The notes: generated by a model not told the origin, from the sequence alone. DNA of 64,000 bases from Gammaproteobacteria bacterium (GCA_965204045.1 CBDBDW010000002.1:3139730-3203729); one strand, 5' to 3'. Shown: positions 7,875 to 52,284, counted from the first letter of the stretch. Program-made: numbers and translations.

Positions 7875-7923
7875 GAAAAAATTAATGAGGCACGAAAATC
7901 AATCGAGTCTGACCCCATTGATT

Positions 7924-30589: not shown

Positions 30590-30852
30590 GTCCTGACGGG
30601 GCAATCCTGGACGAAATACAGCGGACACCTGAACTTCCGTCGTACCTGCAACCTGTCATTGATGACAGTGGCGCGCCCGGACAACTTATCCTGACCGGGA
30701 GTCAACAATTTGAGGTGATGACCAACATAGGTCAATCTCTACAATATTGCCAAACGACAAATCAAATCCCCGAAACTCTACTTCTATGATGTGGGTCTGG
30801 CGAGTTGGCTGCTTGGCGCCGAAGACGAGCGAGTCGAATTAGCAATATAACT
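30590..30852 (+). pseudogene. Remnant of a COG1373/DUF4143 AAA+ ATPase gene (two out-of-frame fragments, internal deletion)
   Basis: Own translation: ILDEIQRTPELPSYLQPVIDDSGAPGQLILTGSQQFE ... and PKLYFYDVGLASWLLG in another frame; no intact ORF. Confidence 0.5.
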
Positions 30853-30970
30853 TGTTGTTTTATTAAGGATAAATGTTGTGCGTGGTGTCTATTGCAACAT
30901 TTTTCCTAACATTATTTTGGGGCTGGATTCATGATGATTTTGTGTTTCTTTCATCTTCCAATTACATGGC
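30827..30970. repeat. Copy R1 of a about 125-145-bp conserved repeat family (about 95% identical to R2 over about 100 bp; tRNA-like 5' part degenerate)
   Basis: aatataacttgttgttttatt..aatgttgtgcgtggtgtctattgcaacatttttcctaacattattttggggctggattcatga shared with 44176-44300, 46165-46285, 47226-47372. Confidence 0.7.
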
Positions 30971-30998
30971 AATAACTTCCCACAGGTTTTAGTCCAGT

Positions 30999-31724
30999 TC
31001 ATCCAGGGGGTTCCTTGAGAGTGGGTGCCTGTAAAACCGGATCAAGCAGCGGGGACAATCCATGAACCAGTTCACGCTCAGTGGGCAACCCGTCAAAGAC
31101 CAGGTCGAAAAATGATTCATCACTGAAAATCAGGCTGGTCGACGCGCACTCCAGTTCATCAATGCGAAAACGCCACAGCTTGTTGAACTTTGCTTTTCCG
31201 TAAATCAAGACCTTCCCGTTCTTATACATGAGAGCGATATTGGACGTGCCGCCCAGTGTATCAAGCGTGATATCCAGCGCTTCCGAGAGTTCGCGGCCGT
31301 CGGCAATGAGTTTCTCCGTCATGCGAAAACCAACTTCCGAATCGACCCTGCCGGCGAGCTGGCCGTCGAATTGATCCCTGAAATCATCCGCCTTTTCAAA
31401 GTCGCCGTTATGGGCATAAGCAAAACCGAATTTGTCTGAATAAAACGGCTGCATGTCCTCGACGATGTTCGGCAGTCTTAACGGGCGACGCAGGTGGAAC
31501 ACCCACCGGCGTGATTCCAGTTCCCGAAGTGAGTCCAGGCCGTCGGGATCCTCAGCCAGCTTACCGACATGGCGCCGGACATCCAGGCGGCCGTCGTCAG
31601 TCAACCGTGCAACTCCCCAGCCCCACCCGGCAATCCCGTACTTCTCCTGGGTAAGCACCCATTGCTCCAGCCGTGTAAATGGAACCGGCTTTTCAGCGCC
31701 TGCAACCAGAATCTCGCACATATC
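30999..31724 (-). CDS. Class-II (Ntn) glutamine amidotransferase-like protein; start MCEILVAG with Cys2 nucleophile
   Basis: MCEILV N-terminus typical of class-II GATase/YafJ family. Confidence 0.7.
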   Translation of the reverse strand, partial: DMCEILVAGAEKPVPFTRLEQWVLTQEKYGIAGWGWGVARLTDDGRLDVRRHVGKLAEDPDGLDSLRELESRRWVFHLRRPLRLPNIVEDMQPFYSDKFGFAYAHNGDFEKADDFRDQFDGQLAGRVDSEVGFRMTEKLIADGRELSEALDITLDTLGGTSNIALMYKNGKVLIYGKAKFNKLWRFRIDELECASTSLIFSDESFFDLVFDGLPTERELVHGLSPLLDPVLQAPTLKEPPG

Positions 31725-31920
31725 AGTCTTCTTCGATAACAGTGATCGCCCTCTCCGGGCAGGACAGCGCCGCACGGCGCGCCGGATTTTCCTGCCCGGG
31801 AACTATCGGGTCCTGTTTCAGGAGCGCTAATCCCTCATCATCCGGCTCAAAGATTTCAGGCGCAACAGCAACACAACGGTTATGCCCCTGGCAACGATTT
31901 CCATCAATTTTTACGCGCAT
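31723..31920 (-). CDS. Small [3Fe-4S]/[4Fe-4S] ferredoxin (P450 redox partner type)
   Basis: 65 aa, IDGNRCQGHNRCVAVAP ... ALSCPERAI cysteine pattern; adjacent to P450. Confidence 0.75.
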   Translation of the reverse strand: MRVKIDGNRCQGHNRCVAVAPEIFEPDDEGLALLKQDPIVPGQENPARRAALSCPERAITVIEED

Positions 31921-31932
31921 ATCTGTCCTCTT

Positions 31933-33093
31933 CTATCCCGCGGAGGATATGACTTTCAGCGGCCCGATATCATCCCAACGGGTTTCCACCTCTTCAGCCA
32001 GAGTAAATCCTGGCAACATGTTCAGCACTTCATCGATAGCGATGCCGATCTCCGCACGCGCCAGGTTGGAACCCAGGCAACGATGGGGCCCGACACCGAA
32101 TGCGACATGACGGTTGGGGAAACGGTCGATATCAAACTTGTCCGGTTCATCGAACTCCTGCGGGTCCCGGTTGGCGCAGCCGAACAACATCACAGCAGGT
32201 TCACCCTTATGTACGGGACAGCCCTGGAATTCGATATCGTTCACCGCATGGCGGCCAAGCGCAATGACGGGGGAGAAGTAACGCAGCGCTTCCTCTACGG
32301 CCGGGTCGATTAAGGAACGATCTTCAATCAGGCGTTTTTGCAGGTTTTGATCGAGAGCCAGTTGCAGCAGTAATGCCCTGATGGTGAAGTTGGTATTGTC
32401 CAGACCGGCCACCAGCAGGAAGAAACAGAAATTGACTACGACTTCATCATCCAGGTGTTTTCCGTCGATCCTGGCATTCAGAACCAGGGAGACCAGGTCA
32501 TCGCCCGGGTGAGCCCGCCGTTCCGGCAATAACTCCGTAAACATCCGGTAAATATTTTCAGTGGCCTCATTGGCGGCCTGCGGGTCTGAAATCCGGCGGT
32601 AAACGGAATCTTCCACCCACTGCTGGAACTCGGCTTTGAATTCCAGACCAAGCATTCTGCAGATAACCACCGTAGGCAATAACTTGGCATAGCCGTAACT
32701 GAGGTCGTAGGGTTCACCGGAACTCATCAGGTCCTTCAGCAAATCACGGGAAGATTGGCGAATCGCCGGAAACCACTCCCTGATTGCTCTCGGAGAAAAT
32801 CGTCCGACCAGGATTTTTCGGTACTCGGTATGTAACGGGGGATCGGACTCCATCGGCAACATGGGCCGGTCGGTCATCGGAGGAAACATCGTACCCCGGG
32901 CCGGACTGAAATTCGCGGTATCGTGCGCCATGGCCTGCACCGCCTCATAGGTAGGCACCAGCCATAAACCGCCGTAGCGGGACGTCTTGCCTACCCCCTC
33001 CTCCCTCAGGTGTTTATAGTAAGCAACGGGATCGGCGCGAAATTCCGGTGAATTGTGATCAAAATCCGCATGAACTTTAGTCATCTTTCCCAC
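31933..33093 (-). CDS. Cytochrome P450
   Basis: Heme-binding loop FGVGPHRCLGSNLARAE; 386 aa. Confidence 0.9.
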   Translation of the reverse strand: MGKMTKVHADFDHNSPEFRADPVAYYKHLREEGVGKTSRYGGLWLVPTYEAVQAMAHDTANFSPARGTMFPPMTDRPMLPMESDPPLHTEYRKILVGRFSPRAIREWFPAIRQSSRDLLKDLMSSGEPYDLSYGYAKLLPTVVICRMLGLEFKAEFQQWVEDSVYRRISDPQAANEATENIYRMFTELLPERRAHPGDDLVSLVLNARIDGKHLDDEVVVNFCFFLLVAGLDNTNFTIRALLLQLALDQNLQKRLIEDRSLIDPAVEEALRYFSPVIALGRHAVNDIEFQGCPVHKGEPAVMLFGCANRDPQEFDEPDKFDIDRFPNRHVAFGVGPHRCLGSNLARAEIGIAIDEVLNMLPGFTLAEEVETRWDDIGPLKVISSAG

Positions 33094-33103
33094 CCCCTTC
33101 TAA

Positions 33104-34204
33104 TCACCAAAGCACGTAATCGCCGTCTCTCAGGACAGGGAGCCGGTCGCCGCCGGTTTTCACCAGGTCAACCGAGACGGTTACCGGGCATTCCTTTGCA
33201 TAGGGCAGGTCCCTGTGCAGGACCGTGTCCGGTGTTTTGAATGCCTCAGGTCCCACGGTGCCGCCAAGAAATTCGCTGCGCCCATAGCCCCAGTGAAAGC
33301 CGGCCTTTTCATCTTCGATAAACAGGCCTGTGACGCGGGCCGCGTAGTTGTACCCAAAGGCGATTTCGCCCACGTTACGGCGCGCGGGGTCCAAGTCGAG
33401 TTCCTCCCGTAGCGCATCCGCATGAGCGCCGTCGCCCAGCACGTCCGTAATCCGGTTTTCCTCAACGACAAAGCGCGCAATGTCATCATTACCACCAGCA
33501 ACGGGAATGATCCCCCGGGTGCGGGACTTCTCTCCCGGCCGTTCTCCCTCGTAGGGGACAATCCATACTTCACCGGATGGCAGGTTGATGAATGCGTCGC
33601 CTTCCTTGTCAGGATGGAGGTAACCGTTGTCCACATATGCCTGCCGGAAACGCAGGTCGAACAGGCAGGTATCACCCGTGGTGAACCTGACCTCCGCCGC
33701 CCGGGTGTCTTTCATTGCGTCCAGGATGACATTGCCGCGTTCTACCAGGTAACGGGTATCAGCCATCAGACAGGTGTCCTCCATGCTGCGGTTGGCCAGC
33801 GGCATGGACGCTACCCGGAATTGTTCTGCAGAGCCTTTATTTTGGCCGAACGCCATCAACGGACCTGTAATCGAGACTTCCGTCATGGAGATGACCACCG
33901 TAGCCTGATCGAGCACTTCGGTGAAGGGTTTTTTCTCCCCCGCAACCGAGGCATACGCCGGAAACTCGGCGTTCGCGTCCGCCACTGCCGGAAAGGAAAC
34001 AAGCGGCAACGCCTTGAAACCGTGTCTTTCACCCATTGCCGCGATTTGATCGCGCCAGTCGGCAGCCATTTCACGCCGTTCCTGCCAGGCCGGATTATCT
34101 TCGGACGCAGATGCGGGCAGATCTGCCAGGATCGCAAACACGTCACCAGGCCGCGGGCCGAACACTTCGGCCACCAGGCTCTCGAGGTTGAATTTCTTCG
34201 TCAT
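33104..34204 (-). CDS. Hypothetical protein (about 366 aa from MTKKFNLESL), possibly a metallopeptidase-like hydrolase
   Basis: Long ORF in operon; N-terminal 68 codons of the track ORF overlap the P450 terminator region and are unlikely coding. Confidence 0.55.
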   Translation of the reverse strand: MTKKFNLESLVAEVFGPRPGDVFAILADLPASASEDNPAWQERREMAADWRDQIAAMGERHGFKALPLVSFPAVADANAEFPAYASVAGEKKPFTEVLDQATVVISMTEVSITGPLMAFGQNKGSAEQFRVASMPLANRSMEDTCLMADTRYLVERGNVILDAMKDTRAAEVRFTTGDTCLFDLRFRQAYVDNGYLHPDKEGDAFINLPSGEVWIVPYEGERPGEKSRTRGIIPVAGGNDDIARFVVEENRITDVLGDGAHADALREELDLDPARRNVGEIAFGYNYAARVTGLFIEDEKAGFHWGYGRSEFLGGTVGPEAFKTPDTVLHRDLPYAKECPVTVSVDLVKTGGDRLPVLRDGDYVLW

Positions 34205-34968
34205 AACTTCCACACTTCCATGCAACGGTTTATCATCGCAACTACCTGGTCTGCGGCTTCGAGATGGACATAATGACCCGATGCAATGACCTGTCCGATG
34301 AGGGCCCCAGGTTGATGTGCAAGCAATACTTCGGGTTCGCTGTTGCGGCCTGCCCAGAAACCGGCTACCGGAACAGTGATGCGTGATAAGGCGTTCCCGC
34401 CATCCCACGCCAGCATGCCGGCGAAGGATTGCATCAAGGTATCCGGATCAATTTTTTCCATTATTTCGGCGCGCCCTGCAACGGCTGTTTTATCGTCATA
34501 CGGTCCCGACTGGGCGTCTATCAAAATATTCCTCGCTTCTTCATAGCCGTCTCCCCGCAGCATTTCCAGCAAGCCTTCCCAACCGCTGCGGGTATCCGGA
34601 TCGAGAACCACGGGCGCAGGATCCAGCAACATGACGGCCGCAACCTCGTCAGAATGCCGGGCGGCCATCTCCAACGCGACAAGGGCACCCATGCTGTGCC
34701 CGATCAATACGGGTTTTTCCAGGCCTGCAGCCTGGACAACCCTGCGAATTTCCCCGGCGCTGTTCCCGATGCTGATGGGCGATGCCGGCGCCGGGTTCTC
34801 TCCATGACCCGGCAGGTCGATGAGAAGCGTAGAACCGTTACTGATACGCCACCACTCAGCCAGGCCGGCCATGAATTGCCTGTGACCCAGTAATGCATGG
34901 AGGAACACCGCAGGCCGTCCCCCTGCCTCGATCAAGTCATGGGCCAGTAACTCAGACCGTGTCGGCAT
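34201..34968 (-). CDS. Alpha/beta-hydrolase fold protein
   Basis: GHSMG nucleophile elbow, HG oxyanion region. Confidence 0.75.
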   Translation of the reverse strand: MPTRSELLAHDLIEAGGRPAVFLHALLGHRQFMAGLAEWWRISNGSTLLIDLPGHGENPAPASPISIGNSAGEIRRVVQAAGLEKPVLIGHSMGALVALEMAARHSDEVAAVMLLDPAPVVLDPDTRSGWEGLLEMLRGDGYEEARNILIDAQSGPYDDKTAVAGRAEIMEKIDPDTLMQSFAGMLAWDGGNALSRITVPVAGFWAGRNSEPEVLLAHQPGALIGQVIASGHYVHLEAADQVVAMINRCMEVWKL

Positions 34969-36355
34969 ACCGCATCAACTCCCAGTCTGACACATCGTCC
35001 TCGGATGAATCCCCGACAGCTTCATTGTAGGCGTCCAGTTCCACGCGCCGGTTGTGGGCATAGAAGCGCACAAAATCCTCCCCCAGGTACGCGTTGGCAA
35101 TTTCACTCTGTTCAAAGACGTCAAGCGCTTCGGCCATGGTAGTCGGTACGCTTTGCAGGGACTCGTTCATATACCCGTCACCCACCACGGGAGCAGGCGG
35201 TTCGAGTTCGTTTTCTATCCCATAGGCCATACCCGCCAGGCACATGGCGATGGACAGGTAGGGATTTGCATCTGCGCCCCCGGTCCTCTGCTCAATCCGG
35301 CACGTGGATGGCGAGTCGACTACAGTACGCAGGGCAATCGACTTGTTGTCATGACCCCATCCTACCAGGTGCCCCGTGGAATAATGCGCAGCGAAGCGGC
35401 GGTATGAATTACGGGTCGGACAGCACATCAGGGTGAAATCCCGCAACGTGGCCAGTTCTCCGGCAACGGCCTGCTTGATGATCCTCGAGCGTTTGTCCGC
35501 CTTGGTTTCATCGTAAAATACGGGCCTGTCGTCCTGCCACAGGGAGTGGTTGATGTGGATGCCATTCCCGAAACCCTGCATGGTCGGTTTCGCCATGAAA
35601 TTGGGGAACAAATCCTGTTGTGACGCAATTTCCCGGATCGCGTGTTTGAACAGGAATGCCGTATCGGCTGCCGTTGTTGCGGGTTCCGGCGTCAGGTTGA
35701 ATTCCTGCATGCCGGGCCCGAATTCCGCCGACCAGACTTCAATGGGCATACCGAACTCCTGCAGGGCTTTGCGCACCGGCTGTACCAGCGGCGCATCACG
35801 GCCGCTGCGGGTTAGGCTGTAACACTGGGCGGTCGGCGACAAGGGCGTCATGTTGCGATAGCCTTTCCGGTATGCCGATTCCTCCGTCTCGCGAAACAAC
35901 AACCATTCCAGTTCCATCGAAAACATCGCCCTGAAGCCCAGTCCCACCAGGCGCTCTTCGAGTCGCCTGACCAGGGCGCGCGGCATGAACTCCAGGGGCC
36001 ATTTGTTTTCCGCGTGCTCATAATCACAGATAACCAGGGCGTTGGCATCCTGCCAGGGAACCAGGCGCACCGTTGCCGGATCCGGGACCAGGCGCAAATC
36101 GGTAAACCCTTCATCCCATGAAGGCCACCAGCCGCTGCCTCCCTCCGGTGGTGGAGAGGGCACGCCTGCGCAATCCATCATTATCATGAAACTGGAAATA
36201 TTTACCGTGGTCGCCGGGTCGGCAAGAAATCGCTTTGCAGGGATATGTTTGCCGCGCGCAATACCGTGGAGATCCGCTGCAACAAACGAGACTGAATCGA
36301 GTTCATGTCGTTCGATGAGATCCAGTATGGGCATGTAATTATTTGTCGAGTTCAC
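34952..36355 (-). CDS. Glutamine synthetase family protein (gamma-glutamyl-polyamine synthetase, PuuA-like)
   Basis: 467 aa GS catalytic-domain architecture. Confidence 0.8.
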   Translation of the reverse strand: MNSTNNYMPILDLIERHELDSVSFVAADLHGIARGKHIPAKRFLADPATTVNISSFMIMMDCAGVPSPPPEGGSGWWPSWDEGFTDLRLVPDPATVRLVPWQDANALVICDYEHAENKWPLEFMPRALVRRLEERLVGLGFRAMFSMELEWLLFRETEESAYRKGYRNMTPLSPTAQCYSLTRSGRDAPLVQPVRKALQEFGMPIEVWSAEFGPGMQEFNLTPEPATTAADTAFLFKHAIREIASQQDLFPNFMAKPTMQGFGNGIHINHSLWQDDRPVFYDETKADKRSRIIKQAVAGELATLRDFTLMCCPTRNSYRRFAAHYSTGHLVGWGHDNKSIALRTVVDSPSTCRIEQRTGGADANPYLSIAMCLAGMAYGIENELEPPAPVVGDGYMNESLQSVPTTMAEALDVFEQSEIANAYLGEDFVRFYAHNRRVELDAYNEAVGDSSEDDVSDWELMRYADTV

Positions 36356-36619
36356 AGTAATTACCCTTCAGCAGTTTTTCGTGAGGGATAAATACCGATA
36401 CCCGTCGGTATATTCCCCCGAGCAGCGAATACATATCATAGGATTAACATGACTGATTTGAAGTGTCCTAATAATACAATTTTTATAACAATTTAAAAAA
36501 ACGCCCATATAGAACCCTGCGGCAAATCAGGTTTACTGCGGTGACCGGCGCGGCGACTGGTTGAGTGGTAAACCACCCGGTGCTATGATTCATGTCCCTG
36601 TCAAGTTCCGTGAACAGCA

Positions 36620-38470
36620 GTGATAAATATCACCGGCAACAACGTTTATAAGTTCCCTCCGTTCCGGCTCAACCTGGCTGAAGCAACGCTGCACAGGGAC
36701 GCGGTTGAACTGCAGGTGCGGCCAAAAACTTTCTCGGTACTCTCAGTACTGGTTCAAAATCATAATAAACTGGTGACAAAAGACAACCTCATGCTGACCG
36801 TCTGGCCCGATGTCATCGTTGAAGATCAGGCATTGAAAAACTGCATAAGGGAACTGCGGCAAATTCTTGGAGACAACCCGCGCTCAGCCGAGTTTATCCA
36901 GACCGTGCACGGCCGGGGTTACAGGTTTATTGCACCCGTGTCCGGCGTCGACCTTGACCCTGCGGATAATTTGCAGAATGACGAGCCTGAACGGCAACAT
37001 ATACTTGTCGATCGGGATGAACCGCTGGCGCAGCTCAATGAATACCTGTCCCGGGCGCTGGCGGGAGAACGGCAATTGGTATTCATAAATGGTGAAGCCG
37101 GGATTGGGAAAAGTGCGCTTGCCGATACGTTCTTCAAACAGGTATTGCCCGATCGAGTGATGTTATCAGGCCAGGGGCAGTGCATAGAGCGACGCGGCAC
37201 GGTAGACGCCTTCATGCCTTTCATAGATGCGCTTGTCGATGCCTGTAAAACAGCCGGATTCGATGCTTTTTCACTCATTGAGCAGCATGCGCCTAACTGG
37301 TACCGGCGGTTGCCCGGCCAAAAAACACGAACCCGTTCAGGTATGACGGGTTCAGGGCTTGCATACAATGATAATGACGGGATGCTCCTGGAAATGGCGG
37401 AAGCACTGGAAACCATAACCAGGAATTATCCCGTCTTGATTTTGCTCGAAGATGTGCAATGGTGTGACAATGCGACCCTGGAATTACTGGCTTTTTTAGC
37501 CCGACGCCGCAACGCCGCCAAGTTCCTGGTGATTGCGACGTATCGAATAGAAGACGTGGTCGGCACGGAGCATCCACTGCCTGCGGTCAAGCAGGAGTTG
37601 CTGGTACACAAACGCTGCGCGGCGATTAATTTACCTCCCCTGACAATCAATGGAATTCACAGGTTTCTCCTCCGGCGCTTCACCCCGGTAGACTCCGCTT
37701 CACTCGATTTGCGCCGTCTGGCAGTAAAAATTCATGGTCGGACAGACGGTAATCCACTGTTCATGACGGAATTCCTCCAGCATTTGATTAACAAGAATTA
37801 TCTTGTCATGGAACAAGAAAACTGGCGCTTGAAATATGATCTGGATGTTGCGGTGAATGAAATTCCTGCAGACCTGAAATTGTTTATCGACGTGCTCGTA
37901 AACAGGCTGGATCCCCTGCCGCGTCACATCCTGGAGATCGCCAGCCTGGCCGGCCCGAAGTTTTCTGCGCGTTTGATTACCGGACTGGTCAATTCAGGCA
38001 TCTTTGAGATTGAGGAGATCTGCTCACAACTGGCAGAGCGTGAATTTATGCTGGCATTCGACAATGAGAAAATTCTGGAGGACGGCAGTTCGGTACAGCG
38101 CTTCCGCTTTATTCATAGCGTGCACCAGGAGACGCTCGCAAATAGAATGCCGGCGGCGCACCGGATTCGTACCTTGAGGGCCATAGCAGAACGCATAGAA
38201 AACCTGTATGCCAGTGACACATCGGAAGTCAATGCTGAGCTTGCGAGCCTCTTTGAACGGGGAAAGATGTATGACAAGGCCATACAATATTTTTTCATGA
38301 ATGCCTGCCAACTCAGCGACAGAGGGGCGGAGCGAGAAGCCCGGTCTCAATTTGCCAGGGGCAGTGAATTACTTAACCTGGTACGGGAGTTGAATGTTCA
38401 GCGGGGGTTGGTCGAAAGGCTTCGAACAACCCGGGAAAAATTGTATGGAAACAAGTCTGCTTTGGCTTGA
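36620..38470 (+). CDS. Transcriptional regulator: N-terminal OmpR/CadC-type winged helix plus AAA/NB-ARC-like ATPase domain; GTG start
   Basis: wHTH ...WPDVIVEDQALKNCIRELRQILGD...HGRGYRF; Walker A LVFINGEAGIGKSAL. Confidence 0.8.
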   Translation: MINITGNNVYKFPPFRLNLAEATLHRDAVELQVRPKTFSVLSVLVQNHNKLVTKDNLMLTVWPDVIVEDQALKNCIRELRQILGDNPRSAEFIQTVHGRGYRFIAPVSGVDLDPADNLQNDEPERQHILVDRDEPLAQLNEYLSRALAGERQLVFINGEAGIGKSALADTFFKQVLPDRVMLSGQGQCIERRGTVDAFMPFIDALVDACKTAGFDAFSLIEQHAPNWYRRLPGQKTRTRSGMTGSGLAYNDNDGMLLEMAEALETITRNYPVLILLEDVQWCDNATLELLAFLARRRNAAKFLVIATYRIEDVVGTEHPLPAVKQELLVHKRCAAINLPPLTINGIHRFLLRRFTPVDSASLDLRRLAVKIHGRTDGNPLFMTEFLQHLINKNYLVMEQENWRLKYDLDVAVNEIPADLKLFIDVLVNRLDPLPRHILEIASLAGPKFSARLITGLVNSGIFEIEEICSQLAEREFMLAFDNEKILEDGSSVQRFRFIHSVHQETLANRMPAAHRIRTLRAIAERIENLYASDTSEVNAELASLFERGKMYDKAIQYFFMNACQLSDRGAEREARSQFARGSELLNLVRELNVQRGLVERLRTTREKLYGNKSALA

Positions 38471-38500
38471 TAAAAACCTTTACGGTACGGCCACCGCGGT

Positions 38501-39256
38501 TTAAGCTGTATTGCAACATTTTGCGGCACTGGCCAGATCATCAAATAATTCTTGGTTGTCCATTGCCGGTAATTTTTCCGGGTGCCATTGCACTCCGATG
38601 ATATATTTTCCCGGGTCTTCAGCCTCTATCGCCTCAACAGTGCCGTCGGGCGCACGAGCGACCACTTTGAAACCTTGCGCAAGCCGGGCAAGGCCCTGGT
38701 GGTGCGTGGTGTTCACCCGCCGGGTTCCACAGCCCAAAATTGATGCCAGTCGCGATCCCGGTACGATTTCAACCGGGTGGCGCAGCGCCAGGATATCATC
38801 AAGCAGCGTCGGCCGGGGACCGTGGTCGGCCCTTCCTTCCTGCGTGATTTTCTGATTGAGCGTGCCACCGAATGCAACGTTTATCAGTTGCATGCCCCGG
38901 CAGGTGCCCAATACCGGGATTCCACGTTCAACTGCGGCATTTAACAGCGCTATTTCCCTGCGGTCTGCGTCAGGGTCAACATTCCGGCAAGTGCCTTTAT
39001 CACTGTCTCCATAGCAGGCAGGATCTATATCATCGCCCCCGGTGAGCAATAACGCATCGATTCTGGAAACCACATTTCCCTCTGTGCCCGGCCTGACGTG
39101 CGGCAGCATCATCGGAATGGCTTCGGCTGCATGGATTCGATCTACATAAGCCTCATCGATCTGAAATATATTCATACGACTGCCCCACACCTCAACATCC
39201 TGGCGCCAGGCTGCGATGCCGATTACCGGCAGGGTTGACTTCGATCGCGAATTCAT
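38501..39256 (-). CDS. Class-I glutamine amidotransferase-like peptidase C26 (gamma-glutamyl-GABA hydrolase, PuuD-like); start at MNSRSKSTLPVIGI
   Basis: GTCRGMQLINVAFGG Cys nucleophile, HHQG..., GVQWHPE. Confidence 0.8.
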   Translation of the reverse strand: MNSRSKSTLPVIGIAAWRQDVEVWGSRMNIFQIDEAYVDRIHAAEAIPMMLPHVRPGTEGNVVSRIDALLLTGGDDIDPACYGDSDKGTCRNVDPDADRREIALLNAAVERGIPVLGTCRGMQLINVAFGGTLNQKITQEGRADHGPRPTLLDDILALRHPVEIVPGSRLASILGCGTRRVNTTHHQGLARLAQGFKVVARAPDGTVEAIEAEDPGKYIIGVQWHPEKLPAMDNQELFDDLASAAKCCNTA

Positions 39257-39311
39257 TACTCCGAAAACAATGCAGCTTATACCAATACTGTTATTCCGGA
39301 GGAGCCAGCTT

Positions 39312-41318
39312 TCACAGCAAGCCGATTGCCTGTCGCGCAGCGCGCTGCCCCTCCGCCATTCCTCCCACGAAGGCTTGCAGGCCGCGCAGTTCGGCATGCG
39401 CGAAAAAGATCCGCCCATAACCCTCGCGCAACGTATCAGTTGCCGAACGGCTGTTATCCGCCGGATAGAAAAAACCGGGTTTTGGAACTGAATAGGCATG
39501 ACCCCATCGGTTAACGGTGATGGCCGCTATGTCGCGTTGTGGTTCGAATCCTCCTTTATCAAATAACACATGCATCTGTTTGATAACACGGTGCTCAATA
39601 TCCATATATGGCGTTGCCAGCAATTGTTGTCGCAATTCAAGGCCCTGTTGCCTGGCCGGCAAGGAACTGTCGATCAATGGCGCGTAAAATGTCAGGACTA
39701 TGGGTTTATCCGGGTGAAAGGGCGCCTTGTAGTCACCTACAACAAGCGGTTGCCGGATATTACAATAAAAACCGAATTTTCCGCCAAAGTACAGAACTGA
39801 CGTCAAGCCCATACGCTCCATAAAACGCCAGTTGGTTAACGCTACATTCACTACGACTACCGGTGAATGATCGAATTTATCCAATGCCGTTGCCACTGCG
39901 GGCGGCGCGTCGCCCAGAATATGCCTGCTGACCCAGGCGCCGGCGCAAACTATAGCCGTTTTCGAAATGACCTGGTGTAATTCGCCGTTTTTCTCATACA
40001 CGATCCGCACCCTGCTGCCGTTACTGCCCTTCAGGTGCCGCACGTCTATTACAGTGGCCGCCAGGTGCATACGCATATTGTTGTCTCGATTTTCCAATTC
40101 ATCAAAACGTATTTTGCCTCCCATCATGGAAGCAGGCTTGTTCTCGCCTTCAAACAGGCCAGGCCAGACATAATTCATCAGGTACCTGTATACATAGGTG
40201 TTCCCGCCGGGGAAACAACCCACATTGAAATCACGCATGAACGTGGTCAGGTGTTTGGCAGATACCGACGCCTTGTATTCACCCGACTCCGGGGTCTCGG
40301 CCGCCCCTGGCATCATCAGCAATTTCGTCGCCACATAGGCCGAACAGGTGGCAGACCCAAAACCGAGAGCGCTGGCGAGCAGAGGATCGCAAAAACGGGC
40401 AACGGCAGGTGACAGCCCATGGACATCCACCAGCAATTCTTCGTAAGACATCCGGTCCAGCCACCGATCCATGTCTTCCCTGTCATGGTTAAAGGAAAGA
40501 CTCCAGTTATAACGGAGAAAATCGTTCCGGGTTTTTTTATCATAGCCGAGCCCCTGCATCCCGTTCATAAAAGGGTTTCTGACAGGCTCGGGTTGGGGAT
40601 TATCATCCGTCGGGGCCGGGAAATAACCGATACTGTCAGAAACGGTCGCCCACAACGTAAATGCGTAATTCGTAACATCGAACTCCAGCGGTTTATCGGT
40701 CCCTTCCAGTTCAACCCAATCATAGGAAAGCGGCATTCCGATATCGTTAAACTCATCGAACATGAGGTCGTCACCGATTGCCGTCTGCCCCGAATAACGG
40801 GGCAGGATGACCAGATTTGAACCCTGTGGTCCGAAAACCCGGCGCCCATTTACGTTAAATTCGTTGTGTTTTGCCTCGCCGCCGAAAATCCTGTGATTCT
40901 CAAGGATCAGCATCCTTGTTTCTGGTGCGTCTTTCTTTATGCGATATGCCGCCCCCATGCTGGTCGCGCCGCCACCAATAATGACGACGTCATAATCATC
41001 ATCGGATGTATGGGCGTTATTGAACGCAGATTCGTCAAACTGGTTTTCCGCAATTGCGTGGGCACGGGCTACAACATCCCAGGTGTTACCATTTTTTCCC
41101 TGATAATCGCCGATACCACTGGGGCCGTCATAGGTTAAATTCACCGGAGCGGCGGCAGAATATTGAGCTGCCCTGGCCTGTAATAATTGTACCGGCGTTA
41201 ACCCACCCAGTAACGCTGTTCCGGCGCCAAGCAGACTCCCTCCAAGAAAATCACGACGCGTAATCTGCATACAAGGCAGATGGTTCTGTTGAATTACTGA
41301 TTGTCGTTTTCTGTTCAC
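39312..41318 (-). CDS. TAT-secreted FAD-dependent amine oxidoreductase (spermidine-dehydrogenase SpdH-like)
   Basis: Twin-arginine signal MQITRRDFLGGSLLGAGTALL; DVVIIGGGATSMGAAYR FAD motif. Confidence 0.75.
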   Translation of the reverse strand: MNRKRQSVIQQNHLPCMQITRRDFLGGSLLGAGTALLGGLTPVQLLQARAAQYSAAAPVNLTYDGPSGIGDYQGKNGNTWDVVARAHAIAENQFDESAFNNAHTSDDDYDVVIIGGGATSMGAAYRIKKDAPETRMLILENHRIFGGEAKHNEFNVNGRRVFGPQGSNLVILPRYSGQTAIGDDLMFDEFNDIGMPLSYDWVELEGTDKPLEFDVTNYAFTLWATVSDSIGYFPAPTDDNPQPEPVRNPFMNGMQGLGYDKKTRNDFLRYNWSLSFNHDREDMDRWLDRMSYEELLVDVHGLSPAVARFCDPLLASALGFGSATCSAYVATKLLMMPGAAETPESGEYKASVSAKHLTTFMRDFNVGCFPGGNTYVYRYLMNYVWPGLFEGENKPASMMGGKIRFDELENRDNNMRMHLAATVIDVRHLKGSNGSRVRIVYEKNGELHQVISKTAIVCAGAWVSRHILGDAPPAVATALDKFDHSPVVVVNVALTNWRFMERMGLTSVLYFGGKFGFYCNIRQPLVVGDYKAPFHPDKPIVLTFYAPLIDSSLPARQQGLELRQQLLATPYMDIEHRVIKQMHVLFDKGGFEPQRDIAAITVNRWGHAYSVPKPGFFYPADNSRSATDTLREGYGRIFFAHAELRGLQAFVGGMAEGQRAARQAIGLL

Positions 41319-41628
41319 GGTGTTCTCTTCAACGGGCGAATACTACTTATCATCATTAAAATATCACTGTCAGAAAATACAAAATTCATACAATTTGCCG
41401 AGTCGCAACAGGCATGAAACCAGCGCAAGGACATCGCGGATTTCGTTACCCGGAAGAGTTGGCAGTATCTGCTGGGAATGACATGGAAAATATTTTGTAC
41501 CATTTTTGTACTTTTCGGATTCTTCAGGTGATTTATTTTTTTATATCGTAAAGCAGTAACAATCCCAGGGGCAGACAAGGTGTGATTATTTGTACTGCAC
41601 ACTGGAATTTCCATACGGGGATGGTGAT

Positions 41629-44103
41629 ATGAAGAACTTAACCTTGACCAGGCAACTAGGTGTATTGATCTCTGTTTTCAGCATTTCTGCTGTGCCTGTG
41701 AATGCTCAAATACTTGAAGAAATTGTTGTAACCGCTGAAAAACGGGAAGAAAAACTATCTGACGTCAGTATTTCTGTTACCGCGTTTACAGGAGAGCAGT
41801 TAAAACGGCTTGGTTACAAAACTACGCGGGAGCTGAACGGGCAGATTCCAAACCTGACAATTACCGATTTCGGAGGCGTACCCCAGACTGTGCTGGTAAC
41901 CATCCGCGGATTGACACAGGACGATTTTCTCAACCACCAGGAGTCGCCGAATTCAGTCTTTTACGATAACGCCTATAACAGTTTTCTCGGCGGTATCGGA
42001 AACCAGTTATTTGATATTGACCGCGTAGAAGTTTTACGCGGACCGCAAGGGACCCTGTTCGGAAGAAATGCAACGGGGGGACTCATCCACATTCTCACCG
42101 CAAAGCCTACGGATGAGTTCGAAGGTTATGGTGAAATAACCGCAGGTTCATATGAGATGGTCCGGTTTGAAGGAGCAATCAGCGGGCCGCTATCCGACGA
42201 ACTTTCCGGGCGGCTTTCAATTGCAACGGAGCATAACGGCGGATTTGTAGAAAACCGGGCCGACACATTGAGTGACGGTACAGTGGCCAGCGATGGCAAG
42301 GATGGCGGTAATATGGAGAACTACAGCCTGCGGTCCAGACTCTTATGGTCTCCCGGAGACGACACCGAGGTATTGATAACAGGAAGGTACTCCAGGGACG
42401 ATGACGTCAGGGCTGCAGTATATGACATTGATGCCGCCCTCAATCTTGGCGCATTCGATCCATCCATTGGCGGACCTAATGTAAATCTTCCGAATGTCGG
42501 TTCATATCCACTCAGCCAATCCGATTTCAATTCATACTGTTTAAATGTCTTCGCTGTTTCCGCTGCCGACAGTGAGGATAATTGTACCGGCAATGATGAT
42601 GACGATGATTTTGCCGGTTCTTTCAGTGACAGTTTTTTCAATCGGGAGAGTTACGGAATTACACTTGATATCAATCACTCAACGGGGGATATACAGATAA
42701 CATCCATTACTGATTTCAAGACTATTGAGCAGGATTACCGGGAGGACAGTGATGGGGTCTCCCGTACCGGGCCGGCGCTGGAAGCTGCCAGGCAGGCCTC
42801 GATTGACGGCACTCTCTTCGGTGTTCCAACCCTGCCCCCGGGGGCACCGATAGAAACTGTCATAGTGGCGGATTTTATCGGATCTGCAGATACGGATCAG
42901 TTCTCACAGGAGTTGCGTATTTCAGGTGAAAACGCTTCCCTGCAATGGCAAACAGGCGCTTATTTGCTGTACATCGATGGTGACTACACAAGCGGCTACG
43001 CTTCATTGGAAACATTCGGCGCAGCGAACGAAAATTTCTATAGTCTCGAAACGCTGAGTTATGCATTTTTTGTCGAAGCACAGTATTTTCTGACGCAGGA
43101 GGTAACTTTTATCGGAGGTGTTCGCTGGACCAGGGACGAAAAGGAATTCTCATTTATCGGTACGTGCACGAATAATACGACCGGCACTTACACATTTGAT
43201 TTTTTTGGATTGGCAGACCCCTGCGTGGATTTCGGTTTTGTCGTACCTGGAGCAGGTTTCATTCAGGACATCGGTTTCACAAAGGAAACCGCAGGTGATC
43301 TGACTGAATTGAATGACGATGCATTTTCATTTAAAGCGCAAATTGAATGGCAGCCGAATGATGACTTGTTGTTTTATGGGGGTGTGACCCGCGCAAATAA
43401 AGCTGGAAATTTCAACGCGGGTATCGCAAACAATATCGTTCCGGCCGTAGTCCCGTTTCAGCAGGAGATTCTTACTTCCTATGAGGCCGGTGTTAAAACG
43501 ACCTTGCTGAACGGAACCGTCAGGTTAAGTGCTGCAGGATTTTACTACGATTATGAAGATTACCAGGCAGCAACCTTCACGCCCGATTTTGTAAACCTGA
43601 TTTCGAATGTTGAGGCGGATGTAGTCGGTGGGGAGGTGGAAATATACGCCCAACCATTTGAAAACACGACTTTTGTGTTCGGCGCCTCATACCTCGATGC
43701 AGAAGCGGACGGTGTGCCAATTCCATTCGGTTCGGGTGAACTGGTTCCTCTCAAACAGGATATGCCGCAAGCGCCGAAATGGTCCGCAAACGGCCTGCTA
43801 CGTCAGGATTGGCCGACGACCTTCGGCAACCTGTTCACACAGATAGACTTCAACTACATAGACGAAAGGGCTACAAGTACTGCAAATTCGCCAATTGCAA
43901 CCCTTGAAAGTTATGTGTTAGCCAATCTTCGCGTAGGTATGAGCACAGCTGATGATAAATGGACTGCTACATTTTTTATTAACAACCTGACTGATACCAC
44001 CGCGATACAGAAGGCGTTTGATCTTTCATTATTTGGAGGATATCGACAACTGGTTAATGGTACGCCTCGTTGGTATGGAGGCACAATCAGGTATCAATTC
44101 TGA
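41629..44103 (+). CDS. TonB-dependent outer membrane receptor; start MKNLTL
   Basis: Plug motifs EEIVVTAEKREEKLSDVSISVTAF, VEVLRGPQGTLFGRNATGGLI; C-terminal ...RYQF. Confidence 0.85.
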   Translation: MKNLTLTRQLGVLISVFSISAVPVNAQILEEIVVTAEKREEKLSDVSISVTAFTGEQLKRLGYKTTRELNGQIPNLTITDFGGVPQTVLVTIRGLTQDDFLNHQESPNSVFYDNAYNSFLGGIGNQLFDIDRVEVLRGPQGTLFGRNATGGLIHILTAKPTDEFEGYGEITAGSYEMVRFEGAISGPLSDELSGRLSIATEHNGGFVENRADTLSDGTVASDGKDGGNMENYSLRSRLLWSPGDDTEVLITGRYSRDDDVRAAVYDIDAALNLGAFDPSIGGPNVNLPNVGSYPLSQSDFNSYCLNVFAVSAADSEDNCTGNDDDDDFAGSFSDSFFNRESYGITLDINHSTGDIQITSITDFKTIEQDYREDSDGVSRTGPALEAARQASIDGTLFGVPTLPPGAPIETVIVADFIGSADTDQFSQELRISGENASLQWQTGAYLLYIDGDYTSGYASLETFGAANENFYSLETLSYAFFVEAQYFLTQEVTFIGGVRWTRDEKEFSFIGTCTNNTTGTYTFDFFGLADPCVDFGFVVPGAGFIQDIGFTKETAGDLTELNDDAFSFKAQIEWQPNDDLLFYGGVTRANKAGNFNAGIANNIVPAVVPFQQEILTSYEAGVKTTLLNGTVRLSAAGFYYDYEDYQAATFTPDFVNLISNVEADVVGGEVEIYAQPFENTTFVFGASYLDAEADGVPIPFGSGELVPLKQDMPQAPKWSANGLLRQDWPTTFGNLFTQIDFNYIDERATSTANSPIATLESYVLANLRVGMSTADDKWTATFFINNLTDTTAIQKAFDLSLFGGYRQLVNGTPRWYGGTIRYQF

Positions 44104-44175
44104 CAATAGCATTCTGGTCAGGCAATAAAAGTAACGTAACGATTGACCTCCGTCACTACGTTACGAACAGCGCTG

Positions 44176-44300
44176 GAAAGAATGCCGATGGCCGGATTCG
44201 AAAGAATAATATAACTTGTTGTTTTTATTGTATAATAATGTTGTGCGTGGTGTCTATTGCAACATTTTTCCTAACATTATTTTGGGGCTGTATTCATGAC
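44176..44300. repeat. Repeat copy R2; carries tRNA-Leu 3'-end-like segment (minus-strand reading TTCGAATCCGGCCATCGGCATTC)
   Basis: gaatgccgatggccggattcgaa + conserved aatataacttgttg...ttttggggctgtattcatga. Confidence 0.7.
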
Positions 44301-44320
44301 GGTCCCTGTTGGCGTTGGTT

Positions 44321-44893
44321 TCAGGTGTCGTCCGGGAGTGTCTGCGTCCAACTGTTGCGTACAGTATCAATGCTGATGAACATTCTTAATGGGCGCGTCG
44401 GCAGCGACTGAAACCCCATGGCAAGATAAAATGCCCGGCGTTTTTCTGTAATATCGGGACCACCGTCCTCAATCACGTCGAGCACCACGGCCTTCAGTCC
44501 GATTTGATCGGCAGCGCCCACCGCGCGCTTTAATGCGTTTCCGAGCAGGATACTTCCTATGCCTTGCCCCTGGTGGCGACGGTCTACGGCGATCATTGAG
44601 AGGTAGGCTGTCGGGATACTTCCGGACCGGGGAGCGTGTTTCGTCAGGCTGGGCGGGAGACCCTCTCCTTCCAGCGAGTGCGCGTTCAGCGCGTAATAAC
44701 CCAGAATTTCATCTCGCCCGCCCTCAGTAGCAACCCAGACCCGTGTAAAGTCCCCCGACTGCTGTTTCCTGGCGCTACGTTTGAGAAAGTTGTCGAGCCG
44801 GACGGTCCCGCATGAGAAAGACGCCCTGTCGTGTTTCTCCGGGTCAAGCGGTGTGATGGATATCCGCCGTGGGTTCAACCCGGCTTCAGTCAC
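44321..44893 (-). CDS. GNAT-family acetyltransferase toxin (TacT-like); probable GTG start overlapping antitoxin stop
   Basis: ...ITPLDPEKHDRASFSCGTVRLDNFLKRSA..., acetyl-CoA motif RRHQGQGIGSILL. Confidence 0.7.
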   Translation of the reverse strand: MTEAGLNPRRISITPLDPEKHDRASFSCGTVRLDNFLKRSARKQQSGDFTRVWVATEGGRDEILGYYALNAHSLEGEGLPPSLTKHAPRSGSIPTAYLSMIAVDRRHQGQGIGSILLGNALKRAVGAADQIGLKAVVLDVIEDGGPDITEKRRAFYLAMGFQSLPTRPLRMFISIDTVRNSWTQTLPDDT

Positions 44894-45197
44894 CCTGCGC
44901 CACTCGGGCGTCGTGCATAGCCATAACTTTCCGCAGTGCGTCGGTCGGCGGCGCCGGCGTTTCCAGGGCAGCCAGAACCACCTCACGGTCTGCGGCAGAC
45001 AGGATCGTACGTTCATGGTCTGCAATCGTTGCCTGTGCCCGCTCAAGCGCCACGCTTGTCACGAAAGTTGTCTCATCGATACCGAGCAGGGCCGCCGCTC
45101 GCTGTATCTGCGCCTTGACGTGCGGTTTGGTTCGTTGTTCCATCCGCGCCGTTTTCGGTTCATCAATAGCGGCCGCATAATCGTCGAAATTCAGCAT
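44886..45197 (-). CDS. DUF1778-family (TacA-like, RHH) antitoxin
   Basis: 103 aa; ...KAQIQRAAALLGIDETTFVTSVALERA... Confidence 0.75.
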   Translation of the reverse strand: MLNFDDYAAAIDEPKTARMEQRTKPHVKAQIQRAAALLGIDETTFVTSVALERAQATIADHERTILSAADREVVLAALETPAPPTDALRKVMAMHDARVAQGD

Positions 45198-45301: not shown

Positions 45302-45805
45302 TCAACGTGCCTGAAGAAGTGTTTCGATACGTTGAACGGGAAGCATCAGGGTCATAGGGTCAATATGCGACACCCGGAACCCGTATCTCAGGTAAAAACG
45401 CCTGGCATCTTCTGAAATGGCGTGTACCAGCACCGCCCGGACGCCTGCATTCCGTGCAACAGCCAGTGTGCGTAACAAGGCATCTTTCAGCAGGGCAGCG
45501 CCCAGGCCTTGACCCTGCGTTGCACGTTCAACGGCCAAACGACCCAATACCATGACGGGAACGGCTTCCGGCATATTGCGGGCTATCGCCGCAGGAGCGC
45601 TGATTCGCTCGACACTCCCGCTGGCAAGAGCATAGAACCCGACTACCCGCTTACCCTCGCTGATAACAAAAGTTCTGCTGGCGCCACTGTCCTGATTTTT
45701 CAGCGCATGCTTTTTAAGCCACTCATTGAGCGCTTCATTACCACAGTCAAACTCCACCAGCAGATGACTGTCAGTCAGAGGCTCCGGGGCTTTGGCTACT
45801 CCCAT
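45302..45805 (-). CDS. GNAT-family acetyltransferase toxin (TacT-like), second paralog
   Basis: LLVEFDCGNEALNEWLKKHA N-terminus, QGQGLGAALL acetyl-CoA motif. Confidence 0.8.
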   Translation of the reverse strand: MGVAKAPEPLTDSHLLVEFDCGNEALNEWLKKHALKNQDSGASRTFVISEGKRVVGFYALASGSVERISAPAAIARNMPEAVPVMVLGRLAVERATQGQGLGAALLKDALLRTLAVARNAGVRAVLVHAISEDARRFYLRYGFRVSHIDPMTLMLPVQRIETLLQAR

Positions 45806-46059
45806 GGAGAAGGAGAAGTCAACAGGGATTTCAGCTTCTCGTTAGCAGGCGCCGGCGCTTCCAGGGCTGCGGTAAAGGCAGCAAAAGTATCATCGTCAAG
45901 TTGAAAAAGACGTTGATTGAGCAACACGTGTTCCGCTTCCCGACAGGCAACGTCCAGGATAAAAGCGCTTCTGTCCTTGTTAAGCATCGCAGCAGCTTTG
46001 GTCAACAGCGCACGCTGACCAGGTTCAACGCGCATGTTAATAGGGGCAGTTTTGGACAT
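45796..46059 (-). CDS. DUF1778-family antitoxin, second paralog; start at MSKTAPINMRVEPG
   Basis: INMRVEPGQRALLTKAAAMLNKDRSAFILDVA. Confidence 0.75.
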   Translation of the reverse strand: MSKTAPINMRVEPGQRALLTKAAAMLNKDRSAFILDVACREAEHVLLNQRLFQLDDDTFAAFTAALEAPAPANEKLKSLLTSPSPWE

Positions 46060-46164: not shown

Positions 46165-46285
46165 ATAAATGGTGCCGATGGCCGGAATAGAAACTGTAAT
46201 GTAACTCGTTGTTTTTATTAAAATATAATGTAGGGCATGTTGTCTATTCCAACATTTTTTCCAACATTATTTTGTGTCCCCAAAA
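46165..46285. repeat. Repeat copy R3 (minus-strand reading ...TTCCGGCCATCGGCACCA; distal end partly inverted relative to other copies)
   Basis: ggtgccgatggccggaataga + taactcgttgtttttatt..atgttgtctattccaacattttttccaacattattttgtgtcccc. Confidence 0.65.
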
Positions 46286-46311
46286 CTATGCAATTACAGG
46301 GCCGCGGGTCA

Positions 46312-47137
46312 CTATGAAATACTTAAGTCGAAGCCGGCTGAGATTGTGTACCATGTACCTTTCCCTTTCCCGTGTTTCGTTAAATGACCATTTTTTACTA
46401 AAGAAGCAATGTGCTCTTTAATCGTCCCCCGGGCGGCACTGGTTGACTTTATGATGTCATCCATTTTGATTTGACCCCGCTCACGTGCAAGTTCCACATA
46501 ATCTACCGTTACCATCCTGAAACGGGTGGATTTGTAACAAGACAACGATAAATACCGCAATAATCAACAGGGGATGAAAAGACCGTTCTTGTAGCGCTTT
46601 ATTCGTCCACTCCTCCAACTCAGTCATCAAACGTGGTGTATCAAAAGGTGATGCCGTAGCAAAAACAACCCCGAGGCTTTTCCCGCTTTCATCAAAAGCC
46701 TCAACATGATTATCAATTTTTTTGTAGTGTCCACGATGTCTTTCGTCTTTTCCTGAATATTGAAGTAAATCACGATGCAGTTGTTTGATGTGATTTTCTG
46801 TCAGTGTGATTGCCGACCACGATGAGAAAATTGTCTCCATGACTTCTGCGTAGCCTGCCACTTCTTCTTCATCGCGTGATTGGAAGGACTTGTTCGGTAG
46901 TTCAATTAACAAGGCTTGAACCTGATTATCCGATAATTGACTTCCTTCTATCCTGGTTGAGGAACCAATGCTTTCGATTGTTGCCACACGACGTAAGGCG
47001 GATAGCCGCTCGGGGGTAAGGGTTGCCAACGCATGCCACGCCCCTTTGAACTCATCCAGTTCTGCAATAATATCGAGTATTTCCGGGGTGATATGAAGGG
47101 TATGTGTTTTAATTGTTTCAGCCATAAATCCAACCAT
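46312..47137 (-). pseudogene. fic: Decayed fic (Fido-domain) gene: Fic domain ORF ends 5 codons after the HPFQDGNGR motif and the C-terminal wHTH continues in another frame
   Basis: HPFQDGNGRLCGTCT* in one frame; overlapping ORF MRYLSLSCYK...LARERGQIKMDDIIKSTSAARGTIKEHIASLVKNGHL (wHTH); about 80 aa missing between motif and wHTH. Confidence 0.65.
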
Positions 47138-47225
47138 ATCCGGCCATAAATATCAAACAAATAATCATAAACGGTTTTCGGCCATAAATCCAGCCAAATT
47201 CAGCCATAAAAAACCGTTAAAGCCA

Positions 47226-47372
47226 GGAAATGGTGCCGATGGCCGGATTCGAATAAGTAATATAACTTGTTATTTTATCCGGGGAAAATGTTGTGAGTGG
47301 TGTCCATTACAACACTTTTCCTAACATTGTTTTGGGGCTGGTTTCATGATGATTTTGTTGTTTTTTCATCTT
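47226..47372. repeat. Repeat copy R4 (minus-strand reading ...TTCGAATCCGGCCATCGGCACCA)
   Basis: ggtgccgatggccggattcgaataagtaatataacttgtt...ttttggggctggtttcatgatgattttgttg. Confidence 0.7.
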
Positions 47373-47579
47373 TCAGCAACAGGGCAATGACGTCCTGCAG
47401 TTTTTTATCCTGGTCCTTCAGGGTTTTTTCAGAAAAAAAGAACCCTTAAAACCTGGCAAGTACCTGTTCACCTACATACAACAGGGGATTGAAACGGATA
47501 CAACCCGGGGAGACTTCCCATAATCGGTCGTCATGTTATAATCAACATTTAGAATTTAATTTCGTATATAAGAAATATT

Positions 47580-49090: not shown

Positions 49091-49113
49091 TGTAAATCAG
49101 CATACGAGTCGAG

Positions 49114-50727: not shown

Positions 50728-50751
50728 TTCAGCGGATATTCGGGAGAGATA

Positions 50752-52278: not shown

Positions 52279-52284
52279 TATCCG

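Follow-up and report, generated by a model that had tools for sequence, protein, structure and literature searches.

Two near-identical repeats, R1 and R2, stand in the same orientation on either side of about 13.3 kb of mainly metabolic genes in a 64-kb stretch of DNA from a Gammaproteobacteria bacterium (GCA_965204045.1, CBDBDW010000002.1:3139730-3203729; the whole stretch of 64,000 nucleotides is called the window here), and the question is what such a pair of repeats means. An earlier note on this DNA, made from the sequence alone, took them for attachment (att)-like ends, R1 decayed and R2 intact, of one integrated island, or for a trace of tandem accretion. The two copies are indeed direct repeats and lie where the note had placed them. 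Nevertheless, the units that vary among related contigs are the toxin–antitoxin (TA) cassettes located between R2 and a further repeat, R4, and not the 13.3-kb block. The four repeats of the window, R1 to R4, are probably att-type junction sites, at which miniature TA elements without an integrase of their own have accreted in an array.

Anatomy of the repeats and the tRNA-Leu(GAG) core

The repeat family of the window comprises four copies, each a module of ~125 bp and all of them on the minus strand (nhmmer): R1 (30815–30941), R2 (44176–44305, located 3′ of the GNAT190 toxin gene), R3 (46167–46292, 3′ of fic), and R4 (47227–47355). Pairwise identity among the four is 75–82%. R1 and R2 agree at 62 of 63 positions of their central stretch (AATGTTGTG...TTCATGA), in 87 of 94 columns from AATATAAC to TTCATGA (~93%, with 5 gap columns), and in 81% of the 144 columns of their full local alignment, and the figure of about 95% over about 100 bp given before is thus fair, if slightly generous. 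A chance origin of the repeats is excluded, since a degenerate 25-nt pattern derived from them has four matches in the window and none in 100 shuffles. No inverted partner was found in the repeat search of the window.

The sequence TGCCGATGGCCGGA, which in reverse complement is a tRNA 3′ end, is present at the start of R2, R3, and R4 and is missing from R1. The left end of these three copies as a whole is the reverse complement of TTCGAATCCGGCCATCGGCACCA, which comprises the T-loop, the 3′ T-stem, the 3′ acceptor strand, and CCA. On the minus strand, the unit thus consists of an AT-rich arm of ~85 nt and, after it, the terminal ~28 nt of a tRNA-Leu(GAG) gene, from the T-loop to CCA with TTTC added. 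Arm and core are both found in R2 (core at 44183–44196, then TTC in place of CCA), R3 (core at 46173–46186), and R4 (core at 47234–47247). R1, delimited by nhmmer, alignments, and a core search, has the arm and a T-loop-like part only, ending in GTTATATTGCTAATTCGACTC, and the invariant core CCGGCCATCGGCA was not found in it by that search.

This architecture is common to all of the 44 copies (25 distinct) that were aligned from the window and related contigs. Four blocks of the alignment are invariant or nearly so, namely CAAAATAATGT, GGAAAAATGTTG.AAT.GAC, AAGTTAYATTA, and the core CCGGCCATCGGCA, and between the last two lies a variable 12-nt stretch with a T-loop-like heptamer, which reads TTCGAAT, TTCTATT, or TTCTACT in different copies. 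Moreover, the motif AAWAATGTTR can be read in the arm twice in direct and once in inverted orientation, and the conserved arm blocks may be binding sites for a recombinase or an accessory protein. Neither strand of the repeat folds better than its shuffles (single-stranded DNA z −0.4 to −2.9), and the consensus fold of 15 sequences reaches −3.3 kcal/mol with 0 compensatory pairs and no covariation. It is therefore the primary sequence that is conserved, as expected for a protein-binding site in duplex DNA. A Xer/dif-like site was considered and rejected; by eye, an arm motif matches a XerD half-site at 7 of 11 positions, with no XerC half at the right spacing.

An intergenic, AT-rich sequence of ~125 bp might also be a dispersed non-autonomous element, such as a miniature inverted-repeat transposable element (MITE) or a repetitive extragenic palindrome (REP), or else a regulatory element or small RNA of the TA operons, and R2 has a sigma-70-like match (10/12) pointing to the core. 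However, the repeat occupies one locus per genome, shows no terminal inverted repeats or target duplications, has no Rfam match and no conserved structure, and is missing beside related TA modules in other genomes, all of which makes this reading very improbable. The promoter-like match is not conserved in R3 and R4, and a conserved outward promoter was rejected as a candidate, since R2 alone has a good match.

The origin of the core can be seen in one related contig, JAPOQU010000055.1 (L026), which carries in succession an intact tRNA-Leu(GAG) gene (160–245, ending in ...GGTTCGACTCCGGCCATCGGCACCA TTTC), an AbiEi/AbiEii module, a bare 25-bp copy of the tRNA end (2946–2970), a TacA/GNAT module 90% identical to that of the window, and a full repeat (3922–4044). 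The 3′ end of this tRNA, GGTTCGACTCCGGCCATCGGCACCATTTC, is the repeat core, with identity over ~28 nt, and a direct-repeat test gave full agreement between the core TTCGAnTCCGGCCATCGGCACCA(TTTC) and the end of the intact gene. This order is a textbook case of repeated integration at a tRNA 3′ end, and, since the tRNA heads an array of the same repeats, these are read as att-type junctions of site-specific integration. The earlier suggestion of att-type repeats derived from a tRNA 3′ end, with tandem accretion, is thus borne out by the L026 array, whereas its other part, a single 13.3-kb island with R1 and R2 as its ends, is not supported. In the same contig, the 2.7-kb AbiEi/AbiEii islet between the intact tRNA gene and the bare 25-bp repeat (160–2970) has neither an R-type arm nor an integrase and is a second element family on the same core.

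When one genome per species was scanned with a 22-nt arm pattern (185,579 species), true copies were found in 5 species only, all of them represented by metagenome-assembled genomes of Gammaproteobacteria. In two complete chromosomes (OZ244846.1 and OZ252091.1), all pattern matches fall within a single 8-kb stretch each. A scan of JGI metagenomes gave one true match, at the same locus as L026, and two scans of IMG/VR for a phage or satellite carrying the arm returned chance matches or phage tRNA genes only.

Presence/absence alleles and toxin–antitoxin cassettes

Alleles were read between the TonB-receptor gene and iclR in the contigs that carry window proteins. L033 has the TonB gene, one repeat, a hicB remnant, and iclR, without any cassette; L032 has the TonB gene, a repeat, an intact Fic gene, a second repeat, and iclR; and the window has the TonB gene, R2, two TacA/GNAT (TacAT) pairs, R3, a Fic gene with a 268-bp deletion, R4, and iclR. 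The flanks of these alleles, which hold 0, 1, and 2 cassettes, respectively, are 98.8–99.5% identical, and at least one repeat is left in every allele. The first repeat of L032 is a hybrid of the left flank and core of R2 with the arm of R3; the 1,990 bp that the window has in excess of L032 are therefore bounded by a 14-bp identity, TGCCGATGGCCGGA, at 44183–44196 and 46173–46186. Such an identity is too short for efficient homologous recombination, and its position is exactly at the core.

The same alleles might be explained by old integrations only, the present variation being due to RecA-type recombination or gene conversion between the ~125-bp repeats with no dedicated recombinase still active. 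No integrase was found near any array, several mosaics switch inside the arm (L033 versus L032 within AATATAACTT, and L002 versus L001 near GTYAGGA), and contig_14 (L001 plus L002), in which the block has an array on either side, carries two copies of a 2.3-kb Fic/TacAT segment, one to each side of the block and ~99% identical. Nevertheless, copies that are only 75–82% identical within a genome are a poor RecA substrate, no more than 14 bp are identical at the two breakpoints of the L032/window indel, and the degree of conservation across species is similar for the repeats and for the genes beside them (L018 versus the window, 84–88% for the non-coding repeats and 85% for TacA/GNAT), which suggests selection on the site; this explanation is considered unlikely. 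The mosaics inside the arm do mean that recombination in the repeat is not limited to one point.

The material exchanged at the repeats consists of TA genes. The order on the minus strand of the window is iclR, a hicB remnant with R4, the Fic gene with R3, TacA/GNAT167 and TacA/GNAT190 with R2, the 13-kb block, a second hicB remnant with R1, a DUF4143 remnant, and a BBE/FAD oxidase gene. All of the TA genes between R2 and iclR are on that strand: a TA module of TacA (103 aa) and a GNAT toxin (190 aa) at 44321–45197 (Pfam; gene calls in L001), another of TacA (87 aa) and a GNAT toxin (167 aa) at 45302–46059 (Pfam), a Fic/DOC gene at 46312–47137, and a HicB/UPF0150-like remnant at 47347–47457, which adjoins the R4 arm and then the iclR promoter region. 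The fic gene is intact in L001, L004, and L032 (360 aa), and relative to this intact form the window copy lacks 268 bp internally, at 46498, because of which this toxin-like gene is dead in the window genome. The repeats lie 15–30 nt past the stop codon of the TA gene, and the Fic cassette (R4 to R3) and the TacAT cassette (R3 to R2) both have att sites on either side and contain TA genes only, without integrase or transfer genes.

In relatives, the same repeat lies 3′ of FitA/PIN, Phd/PIN, and other TacAT modules, and RES-Xre and DUF2442 modules are interspersed with repeat copies or bare cores. Moreover, the arm type tracks the cargo that precedes it. The arm of Fic, which is that of R3 (GGAATAGACAACATGCCC...GTTACATTACAG), is unchanged whether TacAT167 comes next (as in the window and in many relatives), or the block (as in L032), or the BBE flank (as in L019), and its association with fic extends over three junction contexts and three species. 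Solitary TacAT homologues (L078–L080) have no repeat, nor do TacAT homologues 82–85% identical in other genomes; the repeat is therefore not intrinsic to that TA family.

A mechanism can be proposed on these grounds, in which circular elements consisting of an arm, a core, and their cargo would integrate in succession, with the 3′ end of the tRNA gene or a core that the array already contains as the target, presumably by means of a recombinase supplied in trans. In this clade, the elements would be miniature and without an integrase, each of them a TA module with its own arm at the 3′ end, and the cargo would comprise Fic, two TacA/GNAT pairs, and HicB in the window and FitA/PIN, Phd/PIN, RES-Xre, AbiE, and DUF2442 in relatives, building up a co-oriented array. 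Modules would then be gained and lost through recombination at the repeats, in part site-specifically, since one indel breaks inside the 14-bp core, and in part elsewhere in the repeat.

Several observations concern the surroundings of the cassettes. A second conserved end of the Fic cassette (47116–47226, minus strand), in which the repeat search found TTTATGGCYGAA repeats beside the core, is shared with the TacA cassette of L026 (2971–3040), and both cassettes have the same apparent start, M(V/A)GFMAETI; this end may serve as a second arm or as an expression signal common to both. In Mb-scale contigs, the repeat forms larger arrays (L076, 1–11500; L077, 9400–13600), which hold TacAT, RES-Xre, PIN, HTH/DUF6932, and DUF2442 modules together with an IS21 element, and smr-msrQ-msrP forms a conserved distal flank in L076, L078, and L026. 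Next to the array of the window, positions 47580–53184 (iclR, ECH, methylmalonyl-CoA mutase, CoA-transferase, and meaB) form an operon with a low GC content at third codon positions (GC3, 0.46–0.54). In L018, the repeat directly adjoins the homologue of the gene that follows in the window (53239–53691), with no such operon between them, and in L076 the operon is placed on the opposite side of a TA array; it may itself be cargo of the hot spot.

R1 and the metabolic block

The block between R1 and R2 (31034–44175, 13.1 kb) carries the genes that had been named there, a P450, a ferredoxin, a GATase, a polyamine-type (spermidine-dehydrogenase-like) gene, and a TonB receptor, and a Gln-synthetase-like gene as well. 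In full, it comprises a 258-aa GATase_6-like gene with its 3′ end replaced, the ferredoxin, the P450, an M29-like gene, and a hydrolase, followed by the Gln-synthetase-like gene, an OmpR/AAA_16 regulator, a C26 GATase, the spermidine-dehydrogenase-like gene, and the TonB receptor. An island of this extent would be expected to be variably present among relatives, yet the block is conserved in all close relatives, with 98–99.9% identity in every related contig that reaches the region (L001–L005, L028–L033), and this is largely the outcome that the earlier note had named as refuting its proposal.

The two ends of the block differ. Its TonB end always has the core followed by TTCTTTCCAGC joined to GCTGTTCG, and it abuts the core in all four junction contexts, where it is preceded by four different arms (that of GNAT190, that of Fic, that of hicB, and an 'alternative arm' after an MFS gene). 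At the other end, there is no repeat in L003, L005, and L029, in which the block runs into an array of FitA(-PIN), TacAT190, repeat, Fic, repeat, and TacAT167, and then into BBE. R1 is found at the block end only in the window and in L028, which is 99.87% identical to it. R1 is thus no cognate end of an island: it is without a core, and type-A genomes (L003 and L029) have no repeat at that end and have their repeats elsewhere.

The structure of R1 itself is that of a hybrid. The extension that R1 had been said to share with R4 is real (30814–31020 versus 47231–47433, 164 of 208 positions identical) and contains the decayed 3′ half of a HicB/UPF0150-like antitoxin gene (30932–31033, minus strand), identified by Pfam at E = 7e-6, just under the cut-off, and by an intact 56-aa copy that in L025 lies directly upstream of the repeat. 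The window departs from L002 and L003 at ~31033, inside the last block gene, and is from there to R1 homologous to the R4 side; the truncated block gene and the hicB remnant are fused at a GGTTTT microhomology, which is a deletion scar joining the hicB remnant to a 3′-truncated block gene. On its other side, R1 meets the remnant of an AAA_14/DUF4143 ATPase gene (30601–30826, plus strand), which has an internal deletion and a frameshift and ends at the R1 junction (...WLLGAED). In a tblastn search with the intact homologue of L074, the DUF4143 homology runs through ...WLLGAED at 30815–30826, and R1 keeps the arm and TTCGACTC, after which DUF4143 coding sequence follows.

The tRNA-like part of R1, read before as a decayed copy of what R2 keeps, is therefore foreign sequence that resembles the core (TCGGCGCCA versus TCGGCACCA): R2 does keep this part, whereas the R1 counterpart is coding sequence of the DUF4143 gene from 30826 leftwards. 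This is consistent with a secondary site having been used, or with illegitimate joining, and not with slow decay. R1 is a scar, in which the arm and a T-loop stump became joined to the DUF4143 remnant at a core-like sequence, and a deletion fused the hicB remnant to the block gene. Beyond the remnant, the flank is common to all lineages up to 9 nt past the BBE stop codon; at its end, L019 has an intact core, L002, L003, and L020 keep GTGCCGGTG, and the window has nothing recognizable.

The composition does not clearly set the block apart as one unit. Its GC content is 0.528 against 0.562 in the left flank, and GC3 in its left half is 0.61–0.68, as in the left flank, whereas the right half, from the regulator to the TonB gene, has 0.48–0.57; fic and the iclR-meaB operon are lowest.

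That the whole block is one integrated island, with R1 as the decayed and R2 as the intact att site, is in sum improbable. It would account for R1 and R2 being direct repeats and more alike than any other pair in their central 63 nt, for the TonB end abutting a core in every context seen, for the differing position of the block relative to the cassettes among lineages, and for the spermidine-dehydrogenase-like gene, which has no homologue between 92% and 59% identity, its nearest homologues outside the clade being only 59% identical. However, all close relatives have the block, L003 and L029 have no repeat at the R1 end, R1 is without a core and joined to a foreign gene remnant, and the junction with hicB truncates a block gene. 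Moreover, no integrase is found, GC3 in the left half equals that of the flank, and a partly syntenic cluster (SpdH, Gln-synthetase-like, a 368-aa gene, P450, and GATase) exists without repeats in L075. The block is a conserved metabolic segment embedded in the TA array and not a mobile unit. What appeared as a 13-kb att-flanked island becomes a hot spot for the exchange of TA modules at tRNA-derived sites, in which the metabolic block stays, and repeat pairs of the R1/R2 type should not be taken as island borders without a comparison of alleles.

Elsewhere in the window there are four transposase genes, of rve type (11887–13134), IS5-like DDE_Tnp_1 (18852–19895), IS110 (20254–21327), and ISAzo13 (23017–24243), two of these insertion sequences (IS) lying 113 bp apart. 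The IS5-like, IS110, and ISAzo13 copies are insertions absent from L002, L003, and L019, and the ISAzo13 copy interrupts a CBM9_1 gene, of which relatives have the intact form (742 aa). A 98-bp palindrome without spacer (17245–17342, 49-nt arms, 84% complementary), at which the window differs from L002, and a hairpin with 36-nt arms (7833–7925, 92%) look MITE- or REP-like. A 41-nt direct repeat pair (522–562 and 594–634, 95%, spaced 72 nt) and a 31-nt direct repeat family of three copies (8267–8297, 14470–14500, and 27972–28002) are probably coding-sequence similarity.

The recombinase question and known systems

A number of observations weigh against the reading of R1 to R4 as junction sites of miniature integrase-less elements. 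Pfam on the open reading frames (ORFs) of the 64-kb window revealed no integrase and no tyrosine or serine recombinase. With Pfam on the ORFs of L018, L025, and L026 and with precomputed Pfam of neighbors, the contexts (~20 kb) of 12+ related contigs, inspected around homologues of GATase, IclR, ApbA (one contig only), the SpdH-like protein, and GNAT190, contained no integrase, only IS transposases. The window has no tRNA or tmRNA gene and no Rfam family, no intact tRNA heads the arrays of L001–L005, L018–L020, L025, and L076–L077, and an intact target tRNA at the array end is found only in L026. Moreover, the variation of the T-loop-like heptamer would hinder an integrase that depends strictly on the overlap, the switch points inside the arm fit homologous recombination or gene conversion, type-A genomes (L003 and L029) have a core at one block end only, and no circular or excised form was observed. 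These points have been allowed for in regarding the proposed reading as probable.

Elements of the P4-integrase type (phage P4 and the leuX islands of E. coli) target the 3′ end of a tRNA-Leu gene, which results in a direct repeat of ~20–28 bp, and their attP arms contain repeated protein-binding motifs. The present locus resembles them in that a tRNA-Leu 3′ end is copied as a direct repeat, and differs in that no P4-like integrase gene was found and in that the tRNA concerned is a GAG isoacceptor, from an uncultured gammaproteobacterium.

Chromosomal integron arrays, such as the Vibrio superintegron, consist of small co-oriented modules with recombination sites at their 3′ ends, with frequent TA cassettes and strain-variable content. 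The layout seen here is similar, with small co-oriented modules, mostly TA, each with its own recombination-site-like repeat at the 3′ end and with a content that varies between strains; however, a classical integron array, in which the repeats would be attC sites, is hardly credible. Unlike integrons, the locus has no intI, no attI, and no tyrosine recombinase; the repeats form no attC hairpins, fold no better than shuffles, and show no covariation; and their ends are not inverse-complementary (no R″/R′ pair of boxes), the conserved end being the 3′ fragment of a tRNA-Leu gene. A more speculative possibility, itself rather unlikely, is integron-like gene capture with a different chemistry, in which a recombinase encoded elsewhere would insert, excise, and reshuffle miniature cassettes (~85-bp arm plus tRNA-Leu core). 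If so, every core of an array, which itself could persist apart from the tRNA gene, would be open to this recombinase, and these gammaproteobacteria, which are probably sponge-associated, would hold a rapidly changing store of TA and defence modules. A sequence-defined family of arm plus core, with natural alleles of 0, 1, and 2 cassettes, is a convenient system in which to find the recombinase that moves integrase-less TA cassettes, and it could test whether cis-mobilizable arrays can work like integrons.

The closest parallels are accretion systems. Cis-mobilizable elements (CIMEs) are bounded by att sites and lack integration and transfer genes, as described for those related to the integrative and conjugative elements (ICEs) ICESt1 and ICESt3 of Streptococcus thermophilus (PMC5704250). 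The units described here are likewise att-bounded, without integration and transfer genes, and resemble CIMEs and tandem accretion in this respect (PMC5704250); unlike CIMEs, they are TA modules of 1–2 kb rather than decayed ICEs, a single arm family serves at least six types of cargo, no partner element with an integrase was seen, and in the clade of the window the array is not beside a tRNA gene. In Dehalococcoides, tandem ssrA islands are co-oriented within a variable region and are bounded by direct repeats that copy the 3′ end of a tRNA-like gene; some additional bases immediately upstream of the repeat are conserved as well, and insertion is inferred to occur in the T-loop (PMC3146451). 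Most of these islands measure 10–30 kb and carry an integration module with a serine recombinase, while some are without one and have been suggested to be CIMEs (PMC3146451). The present array shares with them the co-oriented units that end in tRNA-type 3′ repeats with conserved upstream bases, and differs from them in that its modules have no recombinase, a conserved arm of ~85 nt, and TA cargo. The locus belongs to this known accretion/CIME kind.

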